Origin: Vulcanimicrobiaceae bacterium
GTDB lineage: Bacteria > Vulcanimicrobiota > Vulcanimicrobiia > Vulcanimicrobiales > Vulcanimicrobiaceae
Direction: 5' to 3'
DNA length: 64,000 nt
NCBI GenBank assembly: GCA_049520515.1
Contig: JBEKPS010000004.1
Location: forward strand, 57,395 to 121,394
In this document: positions 7,382 to 52,537 of the stretch, in pieces
Position numbering within the stretch: position 1 is the stretch's first letter
Layout: the number at the start of each line of letters is the position of its first letter
Notes under the pieces: model-generated
The model's input: the letters and a program-made list of their open reading frames with translations, nothing else
Databases searched by the model: none
What the model was told of the DNA's origin: nothing
Program-made: the position numbers and the translations under genes

Positions 7382-7432
7382 GGTCGTTTCGAGTTCCCAG
7401 GGCCGTAATCAACACCCTCCGAAAATTGTAAA

Positions 7433-11766: not shown

Positions 11767-11807
11767 TCGGCGGGCTTCGCGGCGCGCGCTGCGAACACTC
11801 CGCGGCG

Positions 11808-18462: not shown

Positions 18463-19128
18463 GTGATCGAAAGTCTACCAGCGCCCCCTATCCACCAAGA
18501 GCTCTCGAAAAGCCGGCCCGTCCCGCATTGGTGGTGGGGCCTAAAACGTGTAACCGATATCGTCGTGGCGTTGACGGCGTTAATTGTGACGTTGCCGATT
18601 TCAATCGTTGCAGCCGTTGCAATCGTTCTCGTTTCTCCCGGCTCGCCGCTATTTTTACAGACGCGAGTCGGGCGTGACGGGCGCATGTTTCGCATGTTGA
18701 AGTTTCGCACGATGGATGCCGGCGCGCACCTGCTTCACGACGATATGCGTCCGCTGAACGAAGTCGACGGCCCCGTGCTGAAGATTCGTAACGACCCGCG
18801 CTTGCACGCGCTCGGTGCGATTCTGCGGCGCACGAGTATCGACGAGCTGCCGAATTTCGTGAACGTCTTGCTGGGAGAGATGAGCGTCGTCGGACCGCGC
18901 CCGCCTCTACCATCCGAGGTCGAGCACTACGACGCCCGAGCCCTGCGGCGTCTCACCGTGAAGCCCGGCGTGACGTGCCTGTGGCAGATCAACGGCCGCT
19001 CGACGGTGAGCTTCGATCGGTGGATGGAACTCGACAATCTGTACATCGATACGTGGACGCCAGTCGATGATTTGAAGATCATCATCGGAACGATCCCGGC
19101 GGTCGTTCGAGGCAACGGAGCGCACTAA
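18463..19128 (+). CDS. Polyprenyl-phosphate sugar-phosphate transferase (bacterial sugar transferase, WbaP/EpsL type)
   Basis: 221 aa. One N-terminal TM, then [55 protein letters not shown] start. Confidence 0.92.
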
Positions 19129-19147
19129 ACCGAAGCTCTAGGCCTCC

Positions 19148-20764
19148 ATGAAGCCTCGCCTTCGGGTCGTTCCCGGCGCGCTGCCGACGCATCACGCGCT
19201 CGCGCGTTCGACCTTTCTCGTGATGGCGGCGACTCTCGGCTCTGCGCTCTTGGGTTTCGGGCGCGAGGTCGTCAATGCGCATTATTTCGGGACGCATTGG
19301 GAGCTAGATACCTTCCTTGCAACGGCGACGATTCCAACCATCATTTTCGGACTCTTCAACGGCGCACTCGTAAGCGCGCTGGTCCCTACGTTTTCGGATT
19401 ACCTGGCGACCGGGCGCGACGAAGAGGCAAAGCGCCTCGCCAGTACGATCGTCAACGGACTTGTGATTCTTCTCAGCGTGGCGGCTGTCTTGGGCTGGTT
19501 CCTAGCGCCGTACTATGTTCCGCTTATCGCGCACGGCTTTCCGGCTCCGCAAATGGGCGTTGCGATTCGCATGGCGCGCTGGCTGATGCCGAGTATCATC
19601 GTGACGTCGTTGGCCGGCGTGGTCGCTGCCATGTTGAACGCGTACCAACGCTTCTTAGTGCCGGCGCTTCAAGGCATCGCAATCAATATCGCGACGATGA
19701 CGACGACGATCATCCTCTTTCATCGCATCGGAATCTACGCGTTGGTGCTCGGCACGACGTTCGGTCTGGCAGCGCAACTCCTGGTGCAGCTCCCGTCCTT
19801 CCTTAGACTTCGCTGCTATCGGTTCGTTTTGGATCTAAAGCACCCGGGGCTGGCGCGTATGAATGCGATGCTGGGTCCAATCGTAATAGGCTCGGCGGCC
19901 GGGCAGCTTTCTCTATTCTTCGATCGCTTCTTCGCATCGACGCTTCCACCGGGCTACATGTCGGCAATGAATTATTCGGTGAAACTCGTCTCGTTTCCGC
20001 AGCAGATCTTCGCCGCCGCGATCGCGACCGTACTGTTTCCGTTGCTGGCTTCTCAATTCGCGGGTTCGAATCGGCCGGGGATGCGGCAATCCGTCGTCAC
20101 GGGTTTGCGCCTCGTCAATTTCATCATGATACCGGCGATGTTTGGCTTAGTGGTACTTGCCCATCCCATTACACAGGTATTATTCGAACGCGGCGAATTT
20201 CGAGCTACCTCCACGAGTGTTGTCGCCGGATTGATCCCGTGGGCGGCGTTTGGTGTAATCGCAATCGCAGCCAACATCGTGCTGACGCGTTGCTGCTTCG
20301 CGTGTAAGCAAGCTCGCTCGGCCGTCGGCATATCCGTCTTCTCCGTGTTGCTGAACGTGGCGCTTTCAATTCTTTGGTTGCCATCACTCGGAGCTCGCGG
20401 ATTGCTCCTGGCCAATACCGTGAGCGAGATCGTTGGAACGTTGTTGCTTGCGGGGGTCGTTTGGCGTTTGTTGCATGGGTTCGACGCGGGCGCAATCCTT
20501 CGTTCACTTGGAGGGACGTTGATTGCCGCATCCGTGATGGTCGCGCAACTCTGGTTTATTTTGAACCTCACGGCCAAACCCGACGCATTCTACCAGCGTG
20601 CGCTGTTATTGGCGTGGGAGATCGCGCTCGGGGCGCTCGTCTTCGTGGTGGTATCGCGGCTCCTGCGTGTCGAGGAACTCAATTTGGTTGTTCGACTGAT
20701 TCTTCAAAAATTCGAGCGGCATCTACCCAGCGCGCCTGAAAACCGCGACGTGCCTGTTGGGTGA
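19148..20764 (+). CDS. murJ: MurJ/MviN-family lipid-linked glycan flippase
   Basis: 538 aa, polytopic. FGREVVNAHYFGTHWELDTFLATATIPTIIFGLFNGALVSALVPTFS is typical of MurJ N-termini. Confidence 0.85.
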   Translation: MKPRLRVVPGALPTHHALARSTFLVMAATLGSALLGFGREVVNAHYFGTHWELDTFLATATIPTIIFGLFNGALVSALVPTFSDYLATGRDEEAKRLASTIVNGLVILLSVAAVLGWFLAPYYVPLIAHGFPAPQMGVAIRMARWLMPSIIVTSLAGVVAAMLNAYQRFLVPALQGIAINIATMTTTIILFHRIGIYALVLGTTFGLAAQLLVQLPSFLRLRCYRFVLDLKHPGLARMNAMLGPIVIGSAAGQLSLFFDRFFASTLPPGYMSAMNYSVKLVSFPQQIFAAAIATVLFPLLASQFAGSNRPGMRQSVVTGLRLVNFIMIPAMFGLVVLAHPITQVLFERGEFRATSTSVVAGLIPWAAFGVIAIAANIVLTRCCFACKQARSAVGISVFSVLLNVALSILWLPSLGARGLLLANTVSEIVGTLLLAGVVWRLLHGFDAGAILRSLGGTLIAASVMVAQLWFILNLTAKPDAFYQRALLLAWEIALGALVFVVVSRLLRVEELNLVVRLILQKFERHLPSAPENRDVPVG

Positions 20765-21638
20765 CATTCTCGATCACCCACTCGTCATCGGTTCGGAAGG
20801 ACAGCTAGGGGCGGAGCTCATGCGGGTGCTCGAGGACCGCAACCTCGTCGGCCTAGGTCATTCTCAGCTGGAGATCGCGGATTTTGCGGCTGTCGATGCA
20901 GCGATTGCGAAGATACAACCCACGATCGTCATAAATACCGCCGCATTTCACAACGTCGAAGAGTGCGAGAAAGACCCGCTTCGGGCACTAACCGTTAACA
21001 CCGCCGCCGTCGATAACCTAGCGCGGTGCGCGGCGCGTATCGGTGCGGCCTTTGCCACGATAAGTACTGACTACGTTTTCGACGGAGAGCAATCCGAGCC
21101 GTACGCTGAGGACGATGTTCCGAATCCAATAAACGCCTACGGCGTGTCGAAGTATGCCGGCGAGATCTGCACTCGGAATAGGGACTCGCGCCATTTCGTG
21201 TTTCGCAGCAGTGGACTGTTTGGCACGCAGCGGCTCAAGCAAAAGGAGAAGTTCGTCGAGCGCATTCTACGTCAAGGCGAGCGAGGAGAAAGTCCGCGCG
21301 TCGTCGCGGACGTCATATTTTCTCCGTCGTACGCGCCGGACGTCGCTCGGCTCATGCGTGCTCTGATCGAGCGCGAGGCATTCGGAATCGTTCATATCAC
21401 GAACGCGGGCGCGTGCAGCTGGTTCGAATTTGCGAGCGAAGCACTCTCGCTCGCAGGCCTTGATGTGAAGGTTGAGCCGACCAGATATCGAGACGTCCAA
21501 ACTCAGACGAACCGGCCGGCTTACAGCGCACTCGGGCACAAGGTCCTTGGGGAGTTGGGACTCAGTGTTCCGCCCTGGCGCGATGGCCTGCGGCGCTATC
21601 TTGAGTCGGTTACGACCGCGGCGCGTTCGCTAAAATAA
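20757..21638 (+). CDS. rmlD: dTDP-4-dehydrorhamnose reductase family
   Basis: 293 aa. GSEGQLG, INTAAFHNVEECEKDP, ISTDYVFDG, PINAYGVSKYAGE, NRPAYSAL match the RmlD pattern. No rmlA, rmlB or rmlC in the window. Confidence 0.85.
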   Translation: MGDILDHPLVIGSEGQLGAELMRVLEDRNLVGLGHSQLEIADFAAVDAAIAKIQPTIVINTAAFHNVEECEKDPLRALTVNTAAVDNLARCAARIGAAFATISTDYVFDGEQSEPYAEDDVPNPINAYGVSKYAGEICTRNRDSRHFVFRSSGLFGTQRLKQKEKFVERILRQGERGESPRVVADVIFSPSYAPDVARLMRALIEREAFGIVHITNAGACSWFEFASEALSLAGLDVKVEPTRYRDVQTQTNRPAYSALGHKVLGELGLSVPPWRDGLRRYLESVTTAARSLK

Positions 21639-22588
21639 CGAATCGTACGCTCGAGGCCCTCAGCTAGGCCGATTTTCGGCTCCCATCCCAGCAGCTCGCG
21701 TGCGCGAGTGATGTCGGGACACCGGCGACCGGGATCGTCGACGGGCAGCGCTTCCTGAGTCGTTTGCAAGGGGACGCCGACAACGTCGCTCACGATCCGC
21801 GCGAATTCGGCGATCGCGTGCTCTTCCGGATTCCCGAGATTCACGACGATCCCGCGCGTGCCGTCGCTTGCGGCGCAGCGCACGATGCCCTCGACCAGAT
21901 CGTCGACAAAACAGAATGACCGCGTCTGCTTTCCATTGCCGAATATCGTGAGGGGCCTTCCCTTGAGAGCTTGCGTAATGAAGTTCGGCACAACGCGGCC
22001 GTCCGATAATCGCATCCGTGGCCCGTACGTGTTGAATATCCGAACGATGCGAGCGTCGACGCCGTGTTTCGTAAGATACGAATACGTTAGGGCTTCTCCG
22101 AAGCGCTTGGACTCGTCGTAACACGCACGGGGCCCAAACGAATTGACGTTTCCCCAGTAGGTTTCACGTTGCGGGTGCTCGAGCGGATCGCCGTAGCATT
22201 CGGACGTCGATGCGAAGAGAAAGCGCGCGTTCCATCGCCGCGCGGCCTCGAGCGCGTGCTGCGTTCCGGAAGAATTGACAGCCATTGTCTCGAGCGGATG
22301 CTCAGCGTAATCGACAGGACTGGCCGGGGAGGCAAAGTGCAAGATGAGATCGGGAGCGCTCCCGCGCGAGCGGACGCGGGCCTCGATTGCGTCCCACGGC
22401 TGCGAGACATCGAAACTCAAGAATGAGAATCGGTCGTTCGACGAGGCCTCTCGCAGGTTCTGAGCAGATCCGGTTATGTAATTGTCGAGGCCCGTGACCA
22501 GCGCTGTGGAGTTATTGAGATAGTGATCGACAAGATGAGACCCAAGAAATCCGCCCGCGCCCGTGATGAGAACATTACCGGCTGCCAA
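21596..22588 (-). CDS. UDP-glucuronate decarboxylase (UDP-xylose synthase)
   Basis: 330 aa. ITGAGGFLGSHL, FASPASPVDY, STSECYGDPLEHPQRETYWGNVN, YDESKRFGE, RIFNTYGPRM..GRVVPNFI, GNGKQTRSFCFVDDLV. Confidence 0.9.
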   Translation of the reverse strand: MAAGNVLITGAGGFLGSHLVDHYLNNSTALVTGLDNYITGSAQNLREASSNDRFSFLSFDVSQPWDAIEARVRSRGSAPDLILHFASPASPVDYAEHPLETMAVNSSGTQHALEAARRWNARFLFASTSECYGDPLEHPQRETYWGNVNSFGPRACYDESKRFGEALTYSYLTKHGVDARIVRIFNTYGPRMRLSDGRVVPNFITQALKGRPLTIFGNGKQTRSFCFVDDLVEGIVRCAASDGTRGIVVNLGNPEEHAIAEFARIVSDVVGVPLQTTQEALPVDDPGRRCPDITRARELLGWEPKIGLAEGLERTIRYFSERAAVVTDSR

Positions 22589-23918
22589 GTCGGCTCTTCG
22601 TTGGGAATCTCACGGCGCGGCCGACACCGAGATAGGTGAATCCGAGCTCGGCGAGTCGCGCCGGGTCGTAAATATTGCGGCCATCGAAGATGACGTTGCC
22701 GCGCATCGCGCGCAAGACTTTCTCGAAGTCGATCTGCTTGTATTCGTTCCAGTCGGTGGCAACGCACACCGCGTCTGCCCCAACGACCGCCTCGTAGAGG
22801 TCGTCTGAGAACCGGACGCTGTTGCCGAGCCGCTCCCTCGCCGGGCCCTTGGCCACGGGATCGTGCGCGACGACGGTAGCATGTTCTGACAGAAAGCGCT
22901 GAATCAGCGCGATTGACGGTGACTCGCGCACATCGTCCGTATTCGCTTTGAAGGCGAGCCCTAAAACGGCTAAGGTCTTACCGCGAAGACCTTCCAGCGT
23001 TTCCGAAAGCCGGGTCGCCGCTCGTTCGATCTGAGAAGCGTTTATCTCGAGAATCGATTCCAACAACGGCGTGTGCACGCCGGCGTCGCGCGCCAGTCTG
23101 CTGAGCGCTGTCACATCTTTCGGAAGGCAAGAACCTCCGAATCCAAGACCCGCGCTGAGAAACATGGTGCCGATGCGATGATCGCTCCCGACGCCTCGCG
23201 CTACGTCTTTAACATCGACCGACATACGCTCGCAGATCGCCGCAATCTCGTTGATGAGCGAGATCCGAGCAGCAAGGAGCGTATTCGCCGCGTACTTGAT
23301 CAGCTCTGCCGTTCGAATATCGGTAACGATGATCGGTGCTTCGAGCGGTGCGTAGAGCTCCTCCATCGTCGAACGCGCATTATCATTCGTAACGCCGAGC
23401 ACGACTCGATCGGGTTTCATGAAGTCGGTGATTGCCGAACCTTCTCTTAGAAATTCGGGATTCGAGACAACGGCGATATCGAAGTCGCTAACGCGATGCT
23501 CTTTGATGATGGCCGCAACGAGATCGCCCGTTTCGATCGGGACCGTCGACTTGTTGACGATGATTTTCGGCCCGTCGAGCGATCGCGCGATTTCGAGAGC
23601 GGCTTCGCGAACGTCTTGAATGTCGGCGTGACCGTCGTGCCGCATCGGCGTCCCTACGGCGATAAAGACGATCTCGGCGTTCTGAACTCCGTCTGCGATC
23701 GATTCACCAAAAGATAAGCGGCCGTGGCTCTGATTGTGCGACAACAGCTCCGAAAGACCCGGCTCGTAAAACGGAACCTCACCGCGCTCTAGTGCCTCGA
23801 GGCGGCCACGATTCTTCTCGACGCAAACGACGCGATTTCCAAGTTCTGCGAGGCATGCGGCGGTGACAAGGCCGACGTAACCGGCGCCAATTATGCAAAT
23901 TCTGCGCACCAGGACCAT
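22575..23918 (-). CDS. ugd: UDP-glucose 6-dehydrogenase
   Basis: I set the start at ATG23918 (MVLVRRICIIGAGYVGLVTAACLAELGN). Motifs: NPEFLREGSA, GFGGSCLPKDV, LGLAFKANTDDVRESP. Its stop overlaps the UXS start by 14 nt. Confidence 0.92.
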   Translation of the reverse strand: MVLVRRICIIGAGYVGLVTAACLAELGNRVVCVEKNRGRLEALERGEVPFYEPGLSELLSHNQSHGRLSFGESIADGVQNAEIVFIAVGTPMRHDGHADIQDVREAALEIARSLDGPKIIVNKSTVPIETGDLVAAIIKEHRVSDFDIAVVSNPEFLREGSAITDFMKPDRVVLGVTNDNARSTMEELYAPLEAPIIVTDIRTAELIKYAANTLLAARISLINEIAAICERMSVDVKDVARGVGSDHRIGTMFLSAGLGFGGSCLPKDVTALSRLARDAGVHTPLLESILEINASQIERAATRLSETLEGLRGKTLAVLGLAFKANTDDVRESPSIALIQRFLSEHATVVAHDPVAKGPARERLGNSVRFSDDLYEAVVGADAVCVATDWNEYKQIDFEKVLRAMRGNVIFDGRNIYDPARLAELGFTYLGVGRAVRFPTKSRLGSR

Positions 23919-23954
23919 CTTTTCGCGTGTTCTACAGAAGGACTCCTTTGCCCG

Positions 23955-25259
23955 ATGAAACACACCTGCCGCAGATTGATTAGGCGATTTCTGCGCAGTG
24001 ATTTCGCGCGACACGGTGCGATCGTTTTCGCTTCGTCGATGACGGTCAACGCCCTCAACTACATTCTTCATGTGATGTTGACCCGGCGTCTTGGTGTCGA
24101 CAGCTATGGCGAGCTTTACGCGCTGCTGGCCGCCCTTATGCTATTTTCGGTCCCGACCAGTGTTTTTACGATGATCGTCGTGCGTTATGCCGCCGAATTC
24201 CACGCGCTCGGCGATACGGCTAAACTGGGCGCCTTGTCACGTTGGCTATTACGCCGTACCGTTCTCGTCGCGCTCGCACTGATCGGCCTGGGTGTATTGC
24301 TGCAGGCACCGGTGAGTGCGTATTTGCGTCTTCACGACTCGCGCTCGGTTCTGTTTACGGCGCTCGTTCTCGCGTTCAGCGTCATCGGACCGGTCATTAG
24401 AGGCATACTACAGGGCATCCAAGCGTTTCGACAGTTCGCTCTCTCCACGCTTATCGAGGGGTTTGGGCGCGTCATTCTCGGGGTCGGGTTTGTTTACGCG
24501 GGCTTCGGCGTGAACGGCGCACTTTTCGGACAAGCGTGTGCGATTCTCTTGGCTCTCGGATATACGTGGCTTGCGATCCGCCGAAATGTTCCGAGTACGG
24601 GCGAAGCACTTCACACTGACTTGCGGCGTCTTGCGCAAACGACGACGGGCGTCACCACGGCAATGCTGGCGCTTAGCGTTCTGAACTCGGCCGATCTACT
24701 ATTAGTGAAACACTACTTCTCACCGTTCGAGGCTGGCCTCTATAGCGCCGTGTCGCTCGTCGGCAAGGTCATGCTGTTCGTCGTCGGCTTCGTTCCGACG
24801 ATCGTCCTTCCTAAGGCGACGGCTCGCATGACACGCGGAGAGTCGCCGGTCGGCGTCCTTGCGCAGGCCGCGGCGGCAGTCGCGGTGTTGTGCTGCGGTG
24901 GACTCGCCGTACTGTATTTCGAGCCGACCGTTGTCGTGAGAATTATGTCCGGCAGAGAGTTCCTGGAAGCTGCACCCTACGTATTCCTATACGGTGTCGC
25001 AATGGCCACTCTCGGCGCTTTGACTGTCGTCGTGAATTATAAGATCGGTTTGCACCGTTTTGATTTCTTGGCGCCCGTCGTATTGATAGCAATTCTCGAG
25101 CCGCTTATCATCTCGATCGTTCACACCACCCTGTGGGATGTCGTGAGAATCGTGACCATCGGAAACATAGCGGCGCTCTGCACGAGCCTCTACCGCCTCA
25201 ATGCCTTTGCGGCAGTGCGCCTGCCGCGCGGTACGCAGCAGCCATCCGCTCTAGTGTAG
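23955..25259 (+). CDS. Wzx-like oligosaccharide flippase (MOP superfamily)
   Basis: 434 aa, about 12 hydrophobic segments. The N-terminus FASSMTVNALNYILHVMLTRRLGVDSYGELYAL is typical of the polysaccharide-biosynthesis-protein family. Confidence 0.75.
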   Translation: MKHTCRRLIRRFLRSDFARHGAIVFASSMTVNALNYILHVMLTRRLGVDSYGELYALLAALMLFSVPTSVFTMIVVRYAAEFHALGDTAKLGALSRWLLRRTVLVALALIGLGVLLQAPVSAYLRLHDSRSVLFTALVLAFSVIGPVIRGILQGIQAFRQFALSTLIEGFGRVILGVGFVYAGFGVNGALFGQACAILLALGYTWLAIRRNVPSTGEALHTDLRRLAQTTTGVTTAMLALSVLNSADLLLVKHYFSPFEAGLYSAVSLVGKVMLFVVGFVPTIVLPKATARMTRGESPVGVLAQAAAAVAVLCCGGLAVLYFEPTVVVRIMSGREFLEAAPYVFLYGVAMATLGALTVVVNYKIGLHRFDFLAPVVLIAILEPLIISIVHTTLWDVVRIVTIGNIAALCTSLYRLNAFAAVRLPRGTQQPSALV

Positions 25260-26190: not shown

Positions 26191-26242
26191 GCCCGCCCCG
26201 TTGCGGCCTAACTTTGCGTAGCTCCTCTCGGGTTGCTAATTA

Positions 26243-28016: not shown

Positions 28017-28070
28017 GTCCGCGAGAGGAAAGCAGGCTTCAACCCGACGGTTTGGGGAAAACTGTGCCGG

Positions 28071-29543: not shown

Positions 29544-29563
29544 AGACGCACTCACAACCCAAT

Positions 29564-31101: not shown

Positions 31102-31111
31102 GAACCGTCTC

Positions 31112-41712: not shown

Positions 41713-42047
41713 GATCATTTCTATTGGCGATCGTTCTTGCCGTGGGCGCGTTCGAAGTTGGGCACATCCCTGATCTCCATTGGCTCGCGATTGTGCTTTA
41801 TTGTTGCTGCATCGTCGTTGTTCTCGGCACCGCCATTTCACCTGGAGGCTTAAGGGCGACGCTCAGGATCGATATCGATCGCAAAATTGAAGTTCTCATC
41901 GTTGGGTTTCTTCTTGCGGTGACGTCGTTTGAGCTCCGTCCCGCACCTGACGCGCGTTGGATCGGCAACATTGCGTTTTGGGTGACCGTCTGTGCCGTCG
42001 TCGCCGGCATCTTTACCAATCGTGACGAACCGAGCGACGTCCGTTGA
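41709..42047 (+). CDS. Small 4-TM membrane protein with internal two-hairpin duplication
   Basis: 112 aa. The ATG overlaps the upstream stop (ATGA), and its own stop overlaps the next start (TTGA). The halves LLAIVLAVGAFEVGHIPDLHWLAIVLY.. and IVGFLLAVTSFELRPAPDARWIGNIAFW.. align (LAV, FE, PD, W conserved). Confidence 0.6.
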   Translation: MRSFLLAIVLAVGAFEVGHIPDLHWLAIVLYCCCIVVVLGTAISPGGLRATLRIDIDRKIEVLIVGFLLAVTSFELRPAPDARWIGNIAFWVTVCAVVAGIFTNRDEPSDVR

Positions 42048-42784
42048 AGAAGCAGCTCAACGAGATTTGGCGGGATGTCTGGCAAGCAGTCGCGATCGAC
42101 GATCTCGAGGTTGGTGAAGGTTGCAGCGATCCTTGGACTCAGATCCATACGCCGATCGTAAACCGATGGCTCGCTACACTGCCGCCCGGCCCTATCTGCG
42201 AAATGGGTTGCGGCCTTGGGCAATGGACGCGCTATTATGCTCGAGTCGGCCGCGAAGCCGTCGGGATCGATCTCGTGAGCGATGCCGTTGAAAAAGCGAG
42301 CAAAAAAGCCTCGGATTTAGGGCTTTCAAAGGCGCGATACGTCGTCGCAGATGCTCGCAAGATGCCCTTCGAGGACCGCACATTTGCCGGCGTGAGCAGC
42401 TTCGGTGTGGTCGAACATTTTTGGGATGCGGACACGCAAAGCTTGATCGACGAAACATTTCGCATTCTTTTGCCGGGAGGACGACTTCTGCTCACAACGC
42501 CCAACGTGTGGAGCATGCATAGCTTGACGCGTCCGATTCTTCAAGCACTCGGAAAATGGAATCTGGGTCTCGAGCGTTCGTTCAGCCCGAGCCGGCTTGC
42601 GTCATATTGTTCACGCGCCGGGTTCGCGATCGTTGAAAAAGGCGTGCTCGTTTCAGGGACGCTCTTCGGCGCAGTCTTGACCGAGCGAATTCCCGGGCTC
42701 GACGCGCTAAGCCGATGGATCGAACGGCGACAATCGCTGCTCGGTTTCGTCAGCTACGTAATTGCCGAGCGCCCACGAGTTTGA
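42044..42784 (+). CDS. Class I SAM-dependent methyltransferase
   Basis: 246 aa. ICEMGCGLGQW, VSSFGVVEHFWD, LLPGGRLLLTTPN. TTG start. Confidence 0.85.
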   Translation: MKKQLNEIWRDVWQAVAIDDLEVGEGCSDPWTQIHTPIVNRWLATLPPGPICEMGCGLGQWTRYYARVGREAVGIDLVSDAVEKASKKASDLGLSKARYVVADARKMPFEDRTFAGVSSFGVVEHFWDADTQSLIDETFRILLPGGRLLLTTPNVWSMHSLTRPILQALGKWNLGLERSFSPSRLASYCSRAGFAIVEKGVLVSGTLFGAVLTERIPGLDALSRWIERRQSLLGFVSYVIAERPRV

Positions 42785-44996
42785 CGACGACGACTACGAG
42801 CCAAAGCCAGCCTAAGATTTCAGCACAAAACTGCAGCAGCGCAGGTAAGTAGAGAATCGTTATCCGGCGTTCTTTTTGAGCGGCCGAGACCAACCATCCG
42901 TTTGCGACACCGTCAATGCGGACGTGTGGAAGAGAGTTGAGCCCGTCAAGAGCAAGCCATCTCGGTGCGAACGCGACATTCAATCGAAGCGCGCCGGTGG
43001 CATTTGCGGGCAACGTTGCCGTCATCAACCACGAAAGGACCGTGTGTCCGACAGCCCGAGGTGGACTGAGGTCGTTTTCCGTCCTTACCTTTATATCGGG
43101 GGGCTCGCCTTGGGCGATCAGTAGGCAGGTTCCATGGCAGCGTACTCCTGTCGTCGACCGCGGCAACGTAATCCATCGAAGCGAGGGAGTGTCGTGCGCC
43201 AAGACCGTCCCGTTCTCGTCCGTCAAGCTACCGCGCACGTTAGCCAAGAGCTGCTCGCGAGCATCAACGGGGAAAAGCTGCTGCGACGCCGTCGCGACCC
43301 CTCCAAAGCCTTGCGATAGCTCTGGATGGCTCGCGAAGAGAAGCCGAGCGTCGACCCAGCCGAGCGAAAAGTCTGCGTTGTCGATCGACGAATGTAAGAC
43401 ATGAAAGTCGACTGACGTTGATGAGGGCAAGTCGGCGAAAAAGATCGCGTTGTCCCATGGCTGGGGTGGAATGTCGACCGTCTGCGGCGCACCCCAAAAC
43501 GTAATCTCCGGTAGCGCGGAAAGTGCTGTTATCGTCGCCTGCTGCGTGGCGTTCGCGCTCGTGCTCATTCGTGCGACCGGAAACGTATGCGCAAGCGTCG
43601 CGTCGTCGGTTGAGAGCCAGGGCCGTGAAACGACGGTCGAGACGCTGAGGCTTTGAAGTGGGCGTGCGTCGCCATTTGCGAGCCAATCGCCGAACGCAAA
43701 CGTGGAAGGATAGTCCGGAAGATAAGCATTCAACGGCGTAACGTTATCCGAGCGGATGAAAAGGTCGGGATCGGAGCCCGAACCCTTCCCACGCGCGCTG
43801 AATGGCTGAAATGGCGGCAGAAGAGCAAATCGCGTGTCGGGCGGCGCGTTGAACTCAACCTTTGGCAGCGACGCGACATCGAACCAATAACGCGAGGGTG
43901 CCCCGGCTATCCACGCGATCGCGAAGAGCGGTGCCAGCACAACGACAATGGTACTGGAAATCGGCACGTTCTTCACTGCTCTTGCAGCGAGAACGAGATA
44001 CGCGACGAGAACAAAGGCAACGAGGTCATAAAGCTCGCGAAAAAGTGCGACTCCTCTAACGTGATCGAGCAGAAAACTGTACAGCGGCGCGGTTGGCCCA
44101 CTCAGTCCGCTGATAAACAGAAGTAGGATCGCCGTGATAATCGGAATTCCGAGGTAGATTTTTCGTCCGTAAATACCGGCGAGGGCTACCAGGACGAAGA
44201 GGCCGACGAGGTATGACGCAAATGCCGGCATGCTGTCTGCATATCCGAAGGCATAACCGCCCAACAGCACGGCCTTCCAAAATGGAACCGACTGCGAAAT
44301 CTGCCACACCCGCAGTAACGGAATTTGGCTGAGCGCGAACTGCGAAAACAGGATGCCGATGATCGTAGGCAGCGCAACAATGAGCGTCGATGCATAGGGG
44401 GCGATGCTGCGGACTCGGCGAGCATAGAACGCGAGCAGTACGGTATCCAAGACGAAGAACTGCGTCTGTACGTAGGCGGCGATCATCGCGAGCGAAAGCG
44501 CAAAAGGCCTAGGCGTTTCTCTTCGCAGCTCTGCAGTTAGGTGAAGCGTTGCACCCAAAGATAAGAGCATCGGAAGATGACCGGCCACGAGCTCGTTAAA
44601 AGTCCATGGATTGAAGATCGCAATCAAGGCGAACGCCGTTTGAACGACGGGAGAGGCCGCGTCGGCGATTCGTGCTGCTCCCGTTCCGATGACGACAGCG
44701 ATGCAAAAGAGGAACAGCATAAGCGACCAGTGTGCGCCAAAAATGTAATTCAAGACGCCCGTCAGGGGATCGAGGTCGCAGCCGGTGAGAAACGCATAAG
44801 GTCGGCCGAAGCCGAGCGGTGACCAGCCGGAAATGCTCTCGGCAATGTGCGACGTGATGTCTTCGTTTCCGATTGGCCACGACCAGTCGTGACGCAGACC
44901 CGGTACCGATGTCTGCCATAGGGCTGCGACCGCGAACGCGGCACACGCCAACAGCAGAATGATGAATGCTCCGCGCCTAGCGGCTAACGTTTGCAA
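42750..44996 (-). CDS. GT-C-like membrane glycosyltransferase (paralogue 3)
   Basis: 748 aa. First loop RHDWSWPI; further motifs NPWTFNELVAGHL and RGVALFRELYDL. C-terminal IDGVANGWLV..ITILY is followed by a TM anchor. TTG start. Confidence 0.75.
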   Translation of the reverse strand: MQTLAARRGAFIILLLACAAFAVAALWQTSVPGLRHDWSWPIGNEDITSHIAESISGWSPLGFGRPYAFLTGCDLDPLTGVLNYIFGAHWSLMLFLFCIAVVIGTGAARIADAASPVVQTAFALIAIFNPWTFNELVAGHLPMLLSLGATLHLTAELRRETPRPFALSLAMIAAYVQTQFFVLDTVLLAFYARRVRSIAPYASTLIVALPTIIGILFSQFALSQIPLLRVWQISQSVPFWKAVLLGGYAFGYADSMPAFASYLVGLFVLVALAGIYGRKIYLGIPIITAILLLFISGLSGPTAPLYSFLLDHVRGVALFRELYDLVAFVLVAYLVLAARAVKNVPISSTIVVVLAPLFAIAWIAGAPSRYWFDVASLPKVEFNAPPDTRFALLPPFQPFSARGKGSGSDPDLFIRSDNVTPLNAYLPDYPSTFAFGDWLANGDARPLQSLSVSTVVSRPWLSTDDATLAHTFPVARMSTSANATQQATITALSALPEITFWGAPQTVDIPPQPWDNAIFFADLPSSTSVDFHVLHSSIDNADFSLGWVDARLLFASHPELSQGFGGVATASQQLFPVDAREQLLANVRGSLTDENGTVLAHDTPSLRWITLPRSTTGVRCHGTCLLIAQGEPPDIKVRTENDLSPPRAVGHTVLSWLMTATLPANATGALRLNVAFAPRWLALDGLNSLPHVRIDGVANGWLVSAAQKERRITILYLPALLQFCAEILGWLWLVVVVVKLVGARQLRS

Positions 44997-45036
44997 TATC
45001 GCGTATAGTCTTTCATGAGGAGTCGAGGCGTACTTC

Positions 45037-45912
45037 GTGGTAGCGCACGATTATGCGCCATACTGCCGTGTTTTTCCGCTGACACTCCTCGTCGCTGTCG
45101 CAGTCGGCTTACTGCTGGGCGCAGCTTTCGTGGTGCAGTTTGCTTCGGACGGATTGTTCCAAACCGGATCGGTGGCTCATTCCGTTCCGAGAACTGTCTC
45201 ACAGCGAACGGCGCTGAGCATGTATCAATGGGTTAGCGAGTCGCCGGTTGCGCCCGCATTCGTTCGGGCGATCGTTGCACGAGCCGACATCGACGAGGGT
45301 AGTTTGAATACGGCGGAACGTTTGACCGCCTCGCTTCCGCCTGGTCCACAGCGCGCCGACCTCGAGGGAGATTTGCTGGCCCGAGATGGAAATCTGCGGC
45401 TCGCAGTGTCGCGCTTTATGGACGCCGGAGACACGGCGCGCGTTGACGCATATGTCGACAATCTCGTCGCTGCGGGAAGTTTTGAAGCAGCAGTGACGAT
45501 GCAGCGACTCTTGGTCGATCGGCTGCGGCAATTGCGCGACCAAGGACGTCTCGCGCAGGCAGAATGGCGTTTGGCGCAGATCGAGTCCGCGACGGGCGAC
45601 CACATTGCCGCGGGCCGTGACTACGACGCAGCGCTTAGGCTTATTCCGCTTTCCGAAACGTATCTTCTCGGAGCAGCAAACGAAGCGCTTCAATTCGGTA
45701 GCCTGCATGAGGCCGGTGAATATTTCGATTCGGTCGTTCGGCTCGATCCCGCGAGCCTTGACGGCCACATCGGAGTCGGTCGCGTCGCTGCGCGACAGGG
45801 CGACCTGGTGCGTGCGCGAGGGGAGGCCGAATTTGTACGCGCGCACGTTCCCACTTACCCCGATCTTCAGACGCTCGAGGATGAGATTGCGCGTGCGAAG
45901 ACTACGCGCTGA
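45037..45912 (+). CDS. Membrane-anchored TPR-like repeat protein
   Basis: 291 aa. N-terminal TM (FPLTLLVAVAVGLLLGAAFVV), then helical repeats with TPR-like A/L/Y/G spacing (e.g. AGRDYDAALRLIP, EAGEYFDSVVRLDP). GTG start. Confidence 0.6.
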   Translation: MVAHDYAPYCRVFPLTLLVAVAVGLLLGAAFVVQFASDGLFQTGSVAHSVPRTVSQRTALSMYQWVSESPVAPAFVRAIVARADIDEGSLNTAERLTASLPPGPQRADLEGDLLARDGNLRLAVSRFMDAGDTARVDAYVDNLVAAGSFEAAVTMQRLLVDRLRQLRDQGRLAQAEWRLAQIESATGDHIAAGRDYDAALRLIPLSETYLLGAANEALQFGSLHEAGEYFDSVVRLDPASLDGHIGVGRVAARQGDLVRARGEAEFVRAHVPTYPDLQTLEDEIARAKTTR

Positions 45913-46444
45913 AAATCCTGTCGAACGTTAGCGTGAGATTAGGTAGCGTCGCCGCGGGCATGTCGGATTCGAAGGTGGCAATCTCTTCATAGCAGTCACC
46001 TGCTGGATGACTGCAGCGCTCGATCGTGTTTTCGTCTGGATCGACGATCCAATATTCGGGTACGCCGAATCGCGCGTAGATGTCGCGTTTACGTCCGCGA
46101 TCGACGCCCTTCGTGCCGGGTGAGAGAACCTCCACAATCAAACTCGGGATGCCGATCACAGCTTTGTCACCCAGCGTGTCCTGTCGATCAGGAGCGATGA
46201 AGATGACATCCGGCTCGACGACGTTCTGTGCACTCAAGACAGTGTCGAGCGGAGCGACATATACGTGGCCGCCCTTTCGTCGTGCATGGGTGCTGAGAGC
46301 GATTGCAATGGCGAGCACGAGGCCCTGATGGCGCCGCGTCGGCGAGGGAGTCATGTAGAGCTCGCCGCCGAGAATCTCGCGGCGGAGGTTGTCGTCGGGG
46401 AAGGACTCGAGGTCCTCGTAGACCAGCGGTGCTTGAGTTGCCAT
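45902..46444 (-). CDS. Uma2-family (DUF820) putative restriction-endonuclease-like protein
   Basis: I set the start at ATG46444 (MATQAPLVYEDLESFPDD). ELYMTPSPTRRHQ, PDVIFI, LIVEVLSP, KRDIYARFGVPEYWIVDP match the Uma2 pattern. The track's longer ORF overlaps the neighbouring gene. Confidence 0.85.
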   Translation of the reverse strand: MATQAPLVYEDLESFPDDNLRREILGGELYMTPSPTRRHQGLVLAIAIALSTHARRKGGHVYVAPLDTVLSAQNVVEPDVIFIAPDRQDTLGDKAVIGIPSLIVEVLSPGTKGVDRGRKRDIYARFGVPEYWIVDPDENTIERCSHPAGDCYEEIATFESDMPAATLPNLTLTFDRIFSA

Positions 46445-46496
46445 TGCGTGCTCCACACACAACCCTATCACGACGCCTGCTCCGGCGGAAAGGCCC

Positions 46497-48134
46497 TTAG
46501 CGGGGCGAGACCGCGATAACGTCGGCGTCTTCGAAGAGCACGCGCCCGCAGCCGCGTGCATCTTGTGCACGCTCGTCGCCTTTTGCGACGACGATCCACG
46601 CCTTTTCGATCTGCGCCCCTTCGCAGTCGATTCCGTCGGCATCGATGATTCGGACCGCTGGTGCGAGCATGAGAAGTGTGCCGGCGCGCAGGTTGACGCT
46701 TTCGGCGTCGTGCGGATGCGCGCGAAACCAAGCGTAGACTGAATGCGAATCACCGTAGAACGACACGACGTTTGCGGACGCGACGCCGCTTCCGTAGAGG
46801 AAGAGCGCTAATGACGCAACGCTCGCGAGCGGAGCGGACACGCGTCGCAACTGCGGTGAGAATGCCAGGCACGCTGCAATCCCCGCGATGCATGCGAAAC
46901 TGACTGCGGCGAGTATGGTTGGATCGTGGTTGAGGATATAGAGCAATCGAGCAAATCCTGCAACCGCGCTCAGGATCGAAAGCGCGATGACGACGATCGG
47001 AATTCGACGCGCGATCGGTGCGACGCAAAGAACGCCGAGTACGAGCGCGGGCAAATCAAAACGCAACGACCAACCGAACGCGAGTTGCGGCAGGTTGTTG
47101 CCGTAACCGAACGGGCTTAGCAAGAAGAAAACGATCGAAACGATGCCGATGAACGCGAGGCGGCGCACCTCGCCGGGCATAAAAAGCGCGAAAAGCGGTG
47201 CCAGAAAGAAAACAACCATCGCCGGTCCGCGCGCGCCGACCGCCAAAGCGAGTACGGCCAAAGAGCTCGGTAGGTTGCCGAGGATCGTCGTTGACCACGC
47301 CCCGCTAGAGTACGTCGATTCCACCGAGTTGATCGCATGAGGTGCAAGCAGCGCATCGTGCAGCGACCAAAGCAAGATCGGAACCAAGCCGACGAGTAGC
47401 CGCGGGCGGCTCATGCACACGGTTGCGAGCAGCGCATACGCCCATCCGTACGGTTTCATCAGCGAGAGCGCGACGATTGGGATGATTCCCGTCCAATCCG
47501 GCGTCCGCAGCATCCAGAGCGCCTCGAGAAACCACGCGGCAAGTATGAGATCGTTGCGCTGATCGTATGTTTGAAACGCGACGGTACTTATCGTGATGAA
47601 GGCGGCGCTGAGCGCGACCGCGGCCGGAGCGGGGACATCGAGCGTGCGTAACCAGAGGACGAGCCGTGTGCTCAACATGACGGCTGCTAATAACGACACC
47701 GCACCGGTGATCCAAAGTCCGCCCGCGGCAACGACGCCGGAAATGCTCAGCTCAGAGCCCGGCGGATACCACCAGTAGCGCATCCACGTCGGATCGAGCG
47801 AATGCGCTTGAACCCACGCGAGGGCGTTCGGCAAATGATACGCGAGCGAGTCGCCGTCCGTCGGCGCCCGTGGAATGTACGGTGACGCCACGATCAGCGT
47901 CACGGCTGCGGCTAAGCCTTCCCAGGGATCGAATGCGGTCGTCGTGCCGCGCGCGATGTACGCGCGCAATCCACACACGATTGTCGCGGCGAGAAACACG
48001 CCGACCAGCGTGAGCACATGCAGCGTCGCAAGCACCAGCGGAATCGCAAGAAGAAGAACGAGCATGTTCCGCAAGCGAGACGGAACGTCGATTCGCTCCT
48101 CGCGCGATAGCAGCGGCGCCGCATACCACAGCAT
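46497..48134 (-). CDS. Polytopic membrane protein, PMT/ArnT-like GT-C glycosyltransferase (putative)
   Basis: 545 aa, 12 or more hydrophobic segments. An early loop reads PRAPTDGDSLAYHLPNALAW, resembling the acidic-loop motif of ArnT/PMT enzymes. Short soluble C-terminus. Confidence 0.6.
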   Translation of the reverse strand: MLWYAAPLLSREERIDVPSRLRNMLVLLLAIPLVLATLHVLTLVGVFLAATIVCGLRAYIARGTTTAFDPWEGLAAAVTLIVASPYIPRAPTDGDSLAYHLPNALAWVQAHSLDPTWMRYWWYPPGSELSISGVVAAGGLWITGAVSLLAAVMLSTRLVLWLRTLDVPAPAAVALSAAFITISTVAFQTYDQRNDLILAAWFLEALWMLRTPDWTGIIPIVALSLMKPYGWAYALLATVCMSRPRLLVGLVPILLWSLHDALLAPHAINSVESTYSSGAWSTTILGNLPSSLAVLALAVGARGPAMVVFFLAPLFALFMPGEVRRLAFIGIVSIVFFLLSPFGYGNNLPQLAFGWSLRFDLPALVLGVLCVAPIARRIPIVVIALSILSAVAGFARLLYILNHDPTILAAVSFACIAGIAACLAFSPQLRRVSAPLASVASLALFLYGSGVASANVVSFYGDSHSVYAWFRAHPHDAESVNLRAGTLLMLAPAVRIIDADGIDCEGAQIEKAWIVVAKGDERAQDARGCGRVLFEDADVIAVSPR

Positions 48135-50960: not shown

Positions 50961-51005
50961 GGCTTTCACCGGGAGATACTGCCGGAAGAGGGCAAGGTTT
51001 CGCGG

Positions 51006-52509: not shown

Positions 52510-52537
52510 TATAATATACGCAAATCATGCGTATATT
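52510..52537 (+). promoter_or_regulatory. Candidate -10 box plus 10-bp inverted-repeat operator overlapping the fic start codon
   Basis: TATAAT at 52510-52515. AATATACGCA (52513-52522) and TGCGTATATT (52528-52537) are perfect reverse complements with a 5-nt spacer. The fic ATG is at 52527. This is an AT-rich patch in a GC-rich genome. Confidence 0.3.

Follow-up and report, generated by a model that had tools for sequence, protein, structure and literature searches.

The region analysed here is a genuine locus for a cell-envelope glycan in an uncultured Eremiobacterota bacterium that is diderm and makes LPS. All of its components are of known kinds, and sequence comparison indicates that sister species exchange its central 25 kb as one unit. 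The exchangeable part, called the type B cassette, occupies 25.1 kb (20765-45889) of the window, i.e. the whole 64-kb stretch of DNA that was analysed, and runs from the gene for RmlD through that for a TPR protein.

Extent and exchange of the cassette

In blastn comparisons with three same-genus genomes (G001, G003, and G006), homology ends exactly at 20764 and is back at 45890-45908, which defines the limits of the cassette. The genes from RmlD to M748 have no orthologues in these three genomes, the best matches being at paralogue level (<=55% identity), and a different, type A cassette common to all three lies at the same site. Contig L031 (ENA), from a further close lineage, also carries the type B cassette. 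Conserved genes flank the cassette: a sugar-phosphate transferase (PGT) and MurJ on its left side, and on its right side a Uma2-family gene followed by an ArnT-like GT-C. The first-pass annotation had described a horizontally exchanged island at 18463-48134 and had proposed comparison with the closest relatives to set its edges; this comparison, the sharp breakpoints, the lack of orthologues, and the alternative type A cassette uphold the exchange between lineages, but the boundaries were wrong, as PGT, MurJ, and the ArnT-like M545 are conserved flank genes. Its remark that the edges carry no integrase, transposase, or tRNA holds, with no tRNA gene found within the 64-kb window and no integrase or transposase domain.

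The base composition was also said to be lower. GC content is 57.7% over 18463-48134, compared with 60.1% for the genome and 60.7% and 61.3% for the flanks, and 57.35% in the cassette itself (z = -2.16), a value matched or undercut by 6.4% of equal-sized genome windows. The dip is real (57.4% versus 60.1%, z = -2.2) but small, the contrast amounting to 3-4 points rather than 10 or more, and the 43-57% GC quoted for individual lines at 31-40 kb represents the lower half of a noisy distribution (60-nt lines, mean 56.5%, SD 5.6, range 40-73). For codon usage, also suggested as a check, GC3 is 64.8% in the cassette versus 70.5% in the flanks, and the codon-adaptation index is ~0.60 versus 0.65-0.68. 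Type A cassettes are equally GC-poor, so the low GC belongs to the locus as such and does not prove recent import.

Conserved flanking genes

The left flank ends with PGT (18463-19128, plus strand), a small polyprenyl-phosphate glycosyl-1-phosphate transferase of the WbaP/EpsZ catalytic-domain type (PF02397, 6.6e-58; TIGR03025, 252 bits), which shows 74% identity in same-genus genomes and, at 42 of the 80 loci compared from the phylum as a whole, 58-77% identity (median 63%), and with MurJ (19148-20764, plus strand; PF03023, 265 bits), which is 83% identical in relatives. Since no other MurJ in the genome reaches the threshold, this one is probably the housekeeping lipid II flippase. Further upstream lie three genes on the minus strand, encoding a GtrB orthologue (polyprenyl-phosphate glucosyltransferase, 13016-14137; 1e-103 to Synechocystis GtrB 5EKP over residues 51-354) with two C-terminal TM helices, a Wzy_C-family (O-antigen polymerase/ligase) membrane protein (10531-11802; PF04932, 62.6 bits), which is the O-antigen-ligase-like gene that had been noticed 8 kb upstream, and a GT87-like polytopic protein with 9 TM helices (9269-10579; PF09594 at a sub-threshold 18.7 bits), a possible fifth GT-C. 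On the right, homology to the relatives resumes with the Uma2-family (PD-(D/E)XK-like) gene (45902-46753, minus strand; PF05685, 7.5e-30), followed by M545 (46497-48134, minus strand).

Gene content of the cassette

Boundaries aside, the gene content listed in the first-pass annotation was borne out, by structure models and profile comparison in the case of the GT-Cs and by HMM searches otherwise. Nucleotide-sugar supply is represented by RmlD (dTDP-4-dehydrorhamnose reductase, 20757-21638, plus strand; TIGR01214, 261 bits, cut-off 224), with RmlC genes located elsewhere in the genome (C5 and C16), and, on the minus strand, by UXS (UDP-glucuronate decarboxylase, i.e. UDP-xylose synthase, 21596-22588; 6e-92 to the human UXS1 structures 4GLL and 2B69) and Ugd (UDP-glucose 6-dehydrogenase, 22575-24071; all three UDPG_MGDP_dh domains). 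The Wzx-like MOP-family flippase (23955-25259, plus strand; ~10 TM helices by hydropathy) is barely above the cut-off (PF01943 Polysacc_synt, 28.9 versus 28.2 bits), and homologues 33-46% identical occupy the same locus in other Eremiobacterota. Next to it is an HpnA-like SDR of the nucleotide-sugar epimerase/reductase type (25198-26190, minus strand). The soluble GT2a (26243-27052, plus strand) is a DPM1/PpgS/ArnC-like polyprenyl-phosphate sugar synthase, whose best PDB matches are DPMS (5MLZ, 4e-19) and then ArnC and GtrB, and whose NCBIfam matches include ArnC, PgfS, PpgS, and AglJ; it is a putative donor maker for the GT-Cs.

The genes that follow on the plus strand encode GT2b (27015-28016; PF00535, 4e-11), which has two C-terminal TM helices (residues 253-295) and is 63% identical to a gene adjoining the radical SAM gene on L115, and a class B B12-binding radical SAM enzyme (28071-29543; PF04055 and PF02310), a candidate C-methylase or rearranging enzyme with a 78% identical counterpart on L115. 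The SDR, GT2, radical SAM, and methyltransferase genes of this part of the cassette are similar, though below threshold, to lipid-modifying hpn genes. Two class I SAM methyltransferases (MT1, 29564-30364, and MT2, 30361-31101; Methyltransf_11/23/25) and three Leloir glycosyltransferases recognized by Pfam come next, all on the plus strand: GT2c (31019-32122), GT4 (32123-33334), and GT2d (33202-34413), which have no TM helices by hydropathy and are thus not synthases. Two further class I methyltransferases (Pfam), also on the plus strand, are MT3 (37704-38552), which overlaps the start of M1059 with its 3' end and is 83% identical on L031 with gene order kept, and MT4 (42044-42784). Between a GT-C gene and MT4 lies 4TM112 (41709-42047, plus strand), a 112-aa four-TM protein that had no family match even at E 10, flippase families included, and that is retained in this position on L031 (45% identity); it is a candidate lipid-linked-sugar flippase. 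The last cassette gene encodes a membrane-anchored TPR protein (45037-45912, plus strand) with weak TPR matches under the cut-offs, which is 60% identical on L031 and has a 37% identical homologue at the same position in type A.

None of the four GT-C proteins matched Pfam or NCBIfam over threshold, and structure models together with profile comparison confirm their predicted assignment, M1117, M1059, and M748 as AftD-like and the flanking M545 as ArnT-like. M1117 (34365-37718, minus strand, 1117 aa) matches PF11847 at a sub-threshold 22.3 bits, whereas 32 of 44 homologues match this family (best 6e-33). M1059 (38533-41712, plus strand) has no Pfam match and only six homologues among 5.8 billion proteins; in hhalign its family profile aligned with that of the AftD-like family with a probability of 100% (E 7e-49). 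Besides ~10 TM helices, M748 (42750-44996, minus strand) has a periplasmic domain rich in beta structure and a TM helix at its C terminus; its AF2 model (pLDDT 89.4) has AftD (6W98/6WBY) as best Foldseek match (E 6e-10, TMq 0.55), and its family aligned with the AftD-like family with a probability of 99.4%. An acidic residue after TM1 is conserved in all three families, as a near-invariant D49 in M1117, an invariant HNWDW motif in M1059, and a near-invariant RHDW motif in M748. For M545 (AF2 model pLDDT 91.5), the best PDB match was ArnT (5F15, E 4e-6), followed by ALG12, ALG9, STT3, and AftB; G94 and D95 are invariant, and identity is 82% in G001, 61% in G006, and 49% in G003.

In 55 of 80 loci across the phylum, GT2a has an M748-family GT-C nearby, and it is 52-60% identical where the common MurJ-GT2a-M748 arrangement occurs. 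Genes there are usually ordered Metalloenzyme-PGT-MurJ-GT2a-GT9-AftD-like-x-M748-like, and in other genera a GT9 heptosyltransferase-family gene forms part of the orthologous locus. Next to PGT-MurJ, a DPM1-like GT2 paired with AftD-like GT-Cs is a conserved feature of the phylum and no novelty of one strain.

Polymerization and export

HMM searches agreed with the earlier reading that the island lacks genes for Wzy, Wzz, OPX, an ABC transporter, or a synthase, and each of its polytopic proteins is a MOP flippase or a GT-C, leaving no hidden Wzy. The wider search for distant homologues, also suggested earlier, found Wzz, GNVR, and Poly_export (PF02706, PF13807, and PF02563) to be absent genome-wide but two Wzy_C genes to exist outside the cassette, the flanking one and a WaaL-like one within the lpx/lpt cluster on C8 (BamA-LpxC-FabZ-LpxA-LpxB-Wzy_C-LptC-LptF/G, with FabZ identified by eye). 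An OPX protein is not required for an LPS-linked glycan. Since the lipid A, Lpt, and BamA machinery is complete (LpxA/B/C, LptC/F/G, and BamA) and Wzy_C genes are present, the missing export machinery is accounted for and is not the anomaly it had seemed. The cultured member of the phylum is a Gram-negative bacterium whose outer membrane is covered with LPS (PMC9758169).

A proposed route of glycan assembly and its alternatives

We consider it about an even chance that the GT-Cs act in the periplasm to extend or branch a primer flipped by the Wzx-like protein, the product most likely being an LPS-attached O-antigen-like chain, as suggested by the LPS machinery and by the GT9 gene at the locus in other genera. 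The components are those described above, and the order in which they would act is what we infer. Undecaprenyl phosphate would be primed by the conserved PGT, and a short lipid-linked oligosaccharide would be built by four Leloir transferases (three GT2 and one GT4) from UDP-GlcA and UDP-Xyl (Ugd and UXS) and dTDP-Rha (RmlD), its sugars being modified by the four class I methyltransferases and the B12-radical-SAM enzyme, before the Wzx-like MOP protein would flip it. In parallel, the DPM1/PpgS-like GT2 and the flanking GtrB orthologue would place single sugars on polyprenyl phosphate, and these donors may be flipped by the 112-aa four-TM protein. Because the cassette lacks a Wzy of its own, we propose that the three AftD-like GT-Cs and the ArnT-like GT-C would extend and/or branch the chain in the periplasm. 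The product would then be joined to lipid A-core by a Wzy_C-family ligase and exported via Lpt, so that Wzz and OPX would not be needed. Periplasmic glycosylation by a polyprenyl-phosphate glycosyltransferase, a flippase, and a GT-C has precedent (PMC11127046). The first-pass annotation had likewise suggested polymerization by GT-Cs fed by polyprenyl-phosphate sugars; GT2a, the GtrB orthologue, and the four GT-Cs are real, but sequence alone cannot separate polymerizing from decorating enzymes.

Points against the proposed route are the narrow margin of the Wzx assignment, the lack of any flippase-family match for the four-TM protein, the likeness of part of the cassette to hpn genes, and the conserved Wzy_C 8 kb upstream, which could polymerize the flipped unit. 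In a classical Wzx/Wzy O-antigen or EPS pathway, a less probable but serious alternative, this protein would polymerize and the four GT-Cs would add side-chain sugars afterwards, as Gtr-type or GT136-type three-component systems. PGT, Wzx, and the four Leloir transferases do resemble a repeat-unit assembly line, the second Wzy_C in the lpx/lpt cluster could act as ligase, and all characterized GT-Cs of Gram-negative O-antigen loci are decorating enzymes (PMC11127046). However, the upstream Wzy_C is 64-66% identical in all three relatives, whose cassette is wholly different, and 37-41% identical across the phylum, whereas Wzy enzymes are usually repeat-unit specific and borne on the cassette. 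Type A carries its own Wzy_C gene adjoining MurJ, whereas type B has three AftD-like GT-Cs instead, which fits a Wzy-independent design. The genome-wide absence of a Wzz-type regulator also argues against a classical pathway, and three AftD-like enzymes of giant size, whose periplasmic domains are large, would be many for mere decoration.

It is unlikely that the product is not linked to LPS but is a secreted EPS, a lipoglycan in free form, or a glycan attached to peptidoglycan or to protein (S-layer or O-mannosylation-like). ArnT/PMT/AftD-type GT-Cs also act on proteins, teichoic acids, and lipoglycans, and MurJ adjoins the locus; against this stand the complete gene set for lipid A, Lpt, and BamA, which has a WaaL-like gene in its midst, the lack of an OPX in the genome for EPS export, and the GT9 gene inside the orthologous locus elsewhere. 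Very improbable is a mosaic of unrelated pathways, in which the block of SDR, GT2a, GT2b, radical SAM enzyme, and two methyltransferases would have a membrane lipid (hopanoid or polyprenol head group) as its substrate and not a polysaccharide. In its favour, the genome is that of a hopanoid maker (squalene-hopene cyclase, 448 bits), the best NCBIfam matches of the SDR and the radical SAM enzyme are HpnA (TIGR03466, 258 bits) and HpnJ (165 bits), and a Ugd-UXS-GT2b-radical SAM block moves together beside IS66 copies on another contig. However, the HpnA and HpnJ matches are far under the cut-offs (368 and 577 bits), shc on C3 has a separate HpnA-like paralogue (29% identical to the SDR) as its neighbour, and on L115 an M1059-like GT-C and a methyltransferase again accompany the block, which points to a glycan role.

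Relation to known systems

Among the closest counterparts of the proposed assembly by GT-Cs are three-component systems of periplasmic glycosylation, namely GtrA/GtrB/Gtr* (Shigella and Salmonella), ArnC/ArnEF/ArnT, and the Citrobacter GT136 pentofuranose system (PMC11127046). Shared features are a polyprenyl-phosphate sugar synthase (GT2a and the GtrB orthologue), a small multi-TM protein adjoining a GT-C gene, GT-Cs with beta-rich periplasmic domains, and a position within or adjoining an O-antigen-type locus of a diderm. The present locus differs in its number of GT-Cs, which is four or possibly five instead of one and includes three giant AftD-like proteins; in a small TM protein that matches neither GtrA nor SMR/MATE flippases; in a cassette without the Wzy or ABC transporter that would make a backbone to decorate; and in methyltransferase genes interleaved and overlapping with GT-C genes.

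In mycobacterial arabinogalactan/LAM synthesis, a WecA-made primer is elongated by cytoplasmic glycosyltransferases and then by the AftA-D/Emb GT-Cs, which use decaprenyl-phosphate sugars, PpgS acting with Rv3779. The resemblance lies in AftD itself, which is the best structural match of M748 and the Pfam family of M1117 relatives, in a soluble PpgS/DPM1-like donor synthase, and in the lipid-linked primer made inside the cell and the chain built outside by GT-Cs that we propose. Sequence identity to AftD is nevertheless ~10-11%, with the PF11847 gathering threshold unmet by M1117, M1059, and M748; the host is a diderm with LPS and not a mycolate monoderm, flipping is assigned to a MOP (Wzx) type protein and not to an ABC transporter, and UbiA-type DPPR synthase and DprE1/E2 are lacking, so that no arabinofuranose route is evident.

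With enterobacterial rfb-type Wzx/Wzy O-antigen clusters, the locus shares the replacement of a whole cassette with sharp breakpoints in conserved flank genes, a cassette GC below the genome mean, the set of PGT, Wzx, nucleotide-sugar genes, and Leloir glycosyltransferases, and the lack of an integrase or tRNA; it differs in that the cassette has neither Wzy nor Wzz, the genome lacks Wzz, and GT-Cs and methyltransferases abound in the cassette.

Cassette exchange between conserved flanks

Both flanks of the window are common to three genomes of the same genus (G001, G003, and G006), with protein identities of 46-97%. The shared left flank runs from mfd through, among others, a Wzy_C gene, deoA, a GtrB-like gene, and a metalloenzyme gene to the priming transferase (PGT, 18463-19128) and MurJ, and the shared right flank includes Uma2, the ArnT-like GT-C protein M545 (GT-C names give lengths in aa), a sigma factor gene, kamD, and kamE. 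Nucleotide homology ends exactly at 20764, the MurJ stop, and restarts at 45890-45908, where the TPR and Uma2 genes end convergently, in each of the three comparisons. Between these breakpoints, the relatives carry another cassette, here called type A, which spans ~38-41 kb (~46 kb in G006), shows 35-93% shared identity among the three genomes, and contains two Wzx-like genes, PMT_2-like GT-Cs, and its own Wzy_C directly adjoining MurJ. The cassette of the window (type B, 20765-45889) is absent from these relatives and has neither the two-Wzx-like set nor the PMT_2-like GT-Cs nor a Wzy_C of its own. The first-pass annotation had proposed a horizontally exchanged glycan island at 18463-48134; the exchange is borne out by the replacement of the cassette in relatives, but the limits are not, since the genes for PGT, MurJ, and M545 lie in the flanks shared with the relatives. 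On these alignments, the island is a replaceable 25.1-kb cassette, apparently swapped by homologous recombination in the flanking genes that the genomes share, with no integrase or tRNA. As had been noted from the sequence, mobility genes are lacking: HMM searches of the island region found no integrase or transposase domain, and the window contains no tRNA.

Type B is not confined to the host, since a metagenome contig from a close lineage (L031, from ENA) carries the same order, M545-TPR-M748-MT-4TM-M1059-MT-M1117, where M748, M1059, and M1117 are AftD-like GT-Cs, MT a class I methyltransferase, and 4TM a small four-TM protein. The flank proteins of this contig are 78-98% identical to those of the window, and the GT-Cs are more diverged (66-84%). 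Among seven genomes of the genus, only the host has an M748-family gene. A divergent gene pair for a GME-like epimerase and a UDP-Glc/GDP-Man dehydrogenase-like protein lies in the left flank of the window (6380-8752) and, at 68-84% identity, inside the type A cassette in G001, G003, and G006, so that the pair was relocated when the cassette changed. In the right flank, a Fic/DOC gene (DUF4172 plus Fic; 52527-53639; GC 55.5%, GC3 59%) is inserted between kamD and kamE, the lysine 5,6-aminomutase genes; it is present in the host and G001 and absent in G003, G006, and L031. The longest kamD ORF (50673-52481) overlaps the opposite-strand sigma factor gene (50340-51098), and, since the Lys-AminoMut_A domain begins only at residue 193 of that ORF, translation of kamD probably starts near 51.1-51.2 kb.

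Composition

The lower GC content reported for the island is real but modest (57.7% for 18463-48134, with flanks of 60.7% and 61.3%), whereas the 43-57% quoted from individual 60-base lines is a sampling effect, such lines scattering with an SD of ~6 points about a mean of 56.5%. The cassette itself has a GC content of 57.35% versus a mean of 60.2% for equal-sized windows (z = -2.16), and 6.4% of equal-sized genome windows are as low or lower. Its GC3 is 64.8% versus 70.5% in the flanks and its codon-adaptation index ~0.60 versus 0.65-0.68, the 31-45 kb half being the most atypical. Type A cassettes in the sister genomes have a GC content of 56.8-57.2% versus 61-62% outside; because they are just as low, the dip is less likely to stem solely from recent acquisition from a donor of low GC. 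Far larger low-GC tracts occur elsewhere in the genome, at 170000-275000 of contig C4 and 85000-152000 of contig C2 (down to 54-56% in 30-kb windows).

Gene content of the island

HMM searches recovered all of the gene classes previously listed for the island. These are the PGT at 18463 (PF02397, 6.6e-58), MurJ at 19148, RmlD at 20757 (exceeding its equivalog cut-off), UXS at 21596 (6e-92 versus human UXS1), Ugd at 22575, a Wzx-like MOP flippase at 23955 (PF01943, 28.9 bits versus a cut-off of 28.2), an HpnA-like SDR at 25198, GT2 enzymes at 26243, 27015, 31019, and 33202, a GT4 enzyme at 32123, a B12-binding radical SAM enzyme at 28071, four class I methyltransferases, and a weakly matching TPR protein at 45037. 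The SAM-dependent modifying enzymes number five in all, and nucleotide-sugar enzymes are present for UDP-GlcA, UDP-Xyl, and dTDP-Rha. Two polyprenyl-phosphate sugar synthases are predicted, namely the GT2 enzyme at 26243-27052 (GT2a), which is PpgS-like and matches the solved structures of DPMS (4e-19), ArnC (1e-15), and GtrB (1e-10), and the product of the 13016 gene, a GtrB orthologue (1e-103). The neighboring GT2b (27015-28016) matched no PDB sequence, so that a GtrB-like donor-synthase role for it is without support. The 4TM protein (41709-42047; 112 aa, four TM helices) has the size, topology, and position of a small flippase of the GtrA, ArnE/F, or MATE type and matched no family even at an E value of 10.

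The genome has no other true MurJ, and this one is 83% conserved in relatives; a role as a glycan flippase specific to the island was rejected on these grounds. As the sole MurJ, it presumably flips lipid II. The cassette SDR and the B12-binding radical SAM enzyme (HpnJ-like), at 25198-29543, score below threshold for their hopanoid families. A true hpn operon is unlikely, as neither score comes near its cut-off and the squalene-hopene cyclase gene elsewhere has an HpnA-like gene of its own beside it (C3:188581-191532); no further HpnJ-like gene was found in the host genome by tblastn.

Polymerase and export functions

The earlier observation that the island lacks a Wzy polymerase, a synthase, and an ABC transporter agrees with HMM, TM-helix, and fold/profile evidence. 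Neither Wzy_C nor any other polymerase family was found in 18463-48134, and the polytopic island proteins are all either MOP flippases or GT-Cs; a Wzy hidden among the unannotated polytopic proteins was ruled out by fold and profile evidence, as was a Wzy-like nature of M545 (blastp E value of 0.14 to the Wzy_C region) by its fold match to ArnT. A GT2 synthase was rejected, the island GT2 proteins having 0-2 TM helices, and no island ORF contains an ABC domain. Across the host genome (3.36 Mb, 17 contigs, 60.1% GC, 95%-complete), chain-length regulators and OPX proteins are missing but Wzy_C is not. Wzz (PF02706), GNVR (PF13807), and Poly_export (Wza/OPX, PF02563) gave no match anywhere in the genome, with responses in the control genomes, whereas two Wzy_C genes lie outside the island, one at 10531-11802 and one on contig C8. 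The lack of OPX is not anomalous, because LPS-linked glycans leave by Lpt.

AftD-like and ArnT-like GT-C proteins

None of the four large polytopic proteins exceeded a threshold in Pfam or NCBIfam; structure models and profile comparison nonetheless confirm that four GT-C proteins are present, three AftD-like (M1117, M1059, and M748) and one ArnT-like (M545). By hydropathy, each of the AftD-like proteins has 10-12 TM helices and one more at the C terminus. The M748 model (34 homologues, pLDDT 89.4) consists of a helical bundle (residues 1-355) and a β-rich domain (370-700), and in Foldseek its fold matched mycobacterial AftD (6W98/6WBY) with an E value of 6e-10, a probability of 1.0, and a TMq of 0.54-0.56. 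The M545 model (25 homologues, pLDDT 91.5) matched ArnT best (5F15; E value 4e-6, TM 0.49), followed by ALG12, ALG9, STT3, and AftB. The AftD-like assignment rests on the AftD fold match of M748, to which M1117 and M1059 are tied by hhalign. A search of 1.84 billion representatives gave 862 relatives of M1117, and 32 of the 44 sampled matched PF11847 (GT-C_AftD); against the AftD-like profile of these relatives, the M1059 family aligned with a probability of 100% (E value 7e-49) and the M748 family with 99.4% (4e-21). M1117 itself scores 22.3 bits for PF11847 (gathering cut-off 26) and M1059 and M748 have no match, so the proteins are classed as AftD-like and not as PF11847 members. Searches of PDB sequences with M1117 and M1059 (phmmer) and with the A2 profile gave nothing meaningful, and an MmpA match of M748 (30 bits versus an NCBIfam cut-off of 210) was dismissed as noise or general GT-C likeness. 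The M748 and M545 families align with an hhalign probability of 1%, so the ArnT-like and AftD-like proteins are not close relatives. The M1059, M748, and M545 families are three GT-C subfamilies missed by current domain libraries.

All three AftD-like families keep an acidic residue just past TM1 (as placed by hydropathy and the M748 model), in the first extracytoplasmic loop: Asp-49 is near-invariant in M1117, H38-N39-W40-D41-W42 is invariant in M1059, and R20-H21-D22-W23 is at least 90% conserved in M748. In M545, G94-D95 is invariant. M748-family genes with in-frame stops in genomes of two other genera (G015:C1:1608697-1610949 and G020:C1:595056-597234; one TGA and one TAA that splits the gene) suggest occasional pseudogenization. 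G003 has two M545-like copies on its contig C1, around 3000109-3001764 and 2960820-2962294, of which one adjoins MurJ and the other, apparently in three fragments, occupies the usual right-flank position.

Distribution across the phylum

A scan of species-representative genomes gave 136 M748-family loci, nearly all in Eremiobacterota. In 22-kb loci, the commonest order, found in most, is Metalloenzyme-PGT-MurJ-GT2a-...-M748-like-...-sigma, in which GT2a is 52-60% and the M748-like protein ~33% identical to its counterpart in the window. Because M748-family members are in general only ~33% identical to one another, the latter value is no sign of foreignness, and it is as expected if the enzymes track a variable glycan. 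In a representative locus (L048), the intervening genes encode a GT9 heptosyltransferase-family protein, a 1357-aa protein matching PF11847 (5e-13), and an unassigned product, followed by DegT, GFO, GT2, and ATP-grasp genes. A DPM1/PpgS-like GT2 was co-localized with the M748-family GT-C in 55 of 80 loci, from which we infer that the AftD-like GT-Cs would use polyprenyl-phosphate-linked donors. Judging by gene order, AftD-like GT-Cs accompany a DPM1-like GT2 beside MurJ and PGT throughout the phylum, and this arrangement is ancestral.

Host envelope and LPS machinery

The window corresponds to C4:57395-121394 of the host genome. Homologues of its proteins carry the names Vulcanimicrobiaceae, Candidatus Tyrphobacter, Cybelea, and Eremiobacteraeota, which places the host in Eremiobacterota (WPS-2), a phylum that abounds in soils, peat, and polar deserts. 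The host genome encodes LpxC, in a cluster (C8:72000-90000) that comprises BamA, two Skp-like proteins, LpxC, FabZ, LpxA, LpxB, and, after further genes, a 395-aa Wzy_C protein, LptC, and LptF/G; FabZ, the Skp-like proteins, and an SLH-like or porin-like protein of 940 aa encoded downstream were assigned by eye only. This predicted gene content marks the host as a diderm with synthesis and export of LPS, and the one phylum member in culture is Gram-negative and has LPS covering its outer membrane (PMC9758169). The Wzy_C protein within this lpxC-lpxA-lpxB-lptC-lptFG cluster is the probable WaaL and the best candidate for it, whereas the one at 10531-11802 is 64-66% conserved in relatives irrespective of cassette type.

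Discussion

A priming PGT, four Leloir glycosyltransferases, a MOP flippase, and four GT-Cs are at hand, with genes for LPS ligation and export elsewhere in the genome. The reading that we favor, at about even odds, is a hybrid in which a flipped primer oligosaccharide is extended or branched by GT-Cs and ligated to LPS. Cytoplasmic assembly would yield a short Und-PP-linked oligosaccharide, which would be flipped; the GT-Cs would then lengthen and/or branch it from polyprenyl-phosphate sugars, perhaps flipped by 4TM, and a Wzy_C-family ligase would transfer the product to lipid A-core. A classical arrangement, in which the upstream Wzy_C polymerizes and the GT-Cs merely decorate, is possible although we regard it as rather doubtful. 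That conserved Wzy_C is the best argument against a Wzy-independent design, whereas the best argument for one is that type A has its own Wzy_C and type B has none but three AftD-like GT-Cs. Unlikely, at somewhere near one chance in five, is a reading in which sister species would alternate, at one site, between two ways to build the same class of LPS-linked glycan, type A with its own Wzy_C polymerase and type B GT-C-polymerized and independent of Wzy, Wzz, and OPX. In the periplasm, the three AftD-like GT-Cs of type B, fed by a DPM1/PpgS-like synthase, would polymerize a chain that contains xylose or rhamnose and is heavily methylated, which, if true, would amount to a "fourth route" in a diderm in the style of mycobacterial arabinan. 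We consider a product not linked to LPS improbable, and modification of a lipid by a sub-block of the cassette very improbable indeed.

Every part is of a known kind, and what is new is the combination within a diderm phylum, the three GT-C subfamilies that domain libraries do not recognize, and the occurrence of Wzy-containing and Wzy-less alternatives at one site. The closest systems are three-component periplasmic glycosylation (Gtr, Arn, and GT136; PMC11127046), mycobacterial arabinan and LAM assembly, and O-antigen loci exchanged as cassettes. Three-component systems share with the locus a synthase of the GtrB/ArnC/DPM1/PpgS type; with the Wzx/Wzy pathway, the locus shares the PGT/PNPT initiating enzyme and Wzx but has neither a cassette-borne Wzy nor a Wzz/PCP. 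The locus offers a natural and testable comparison between GT-Cs as backbone builders and as mere decorators in a Gram-negative envelope, whole cassettes being swapped between sister species, one form with a Wzy-type gene and the other without.

With mobile genomic islands, the cassette shares atypical composition and absence from relatives but not an integrase, transposase, or tRNA. A related module lies next to IS66 copies on a contig of another genome (L115; GCA_021782295.1, JAJXVC010000003.1, 1-21288; genome GC 55.6%), in the order GT2-Ugd fusion, UXS, GT2b (63% identity), B12-binding radical SAM enzyme (78%), GT2, aldo-keto reductase, GMC oxidoreductase, GT2, a 1456-aa M1059-like GT-C (45%), methyltransferase, and acetyltransferase, with repeated IS66 elements immediately after; modules may be transferred by means of this IS66-linked stretch.
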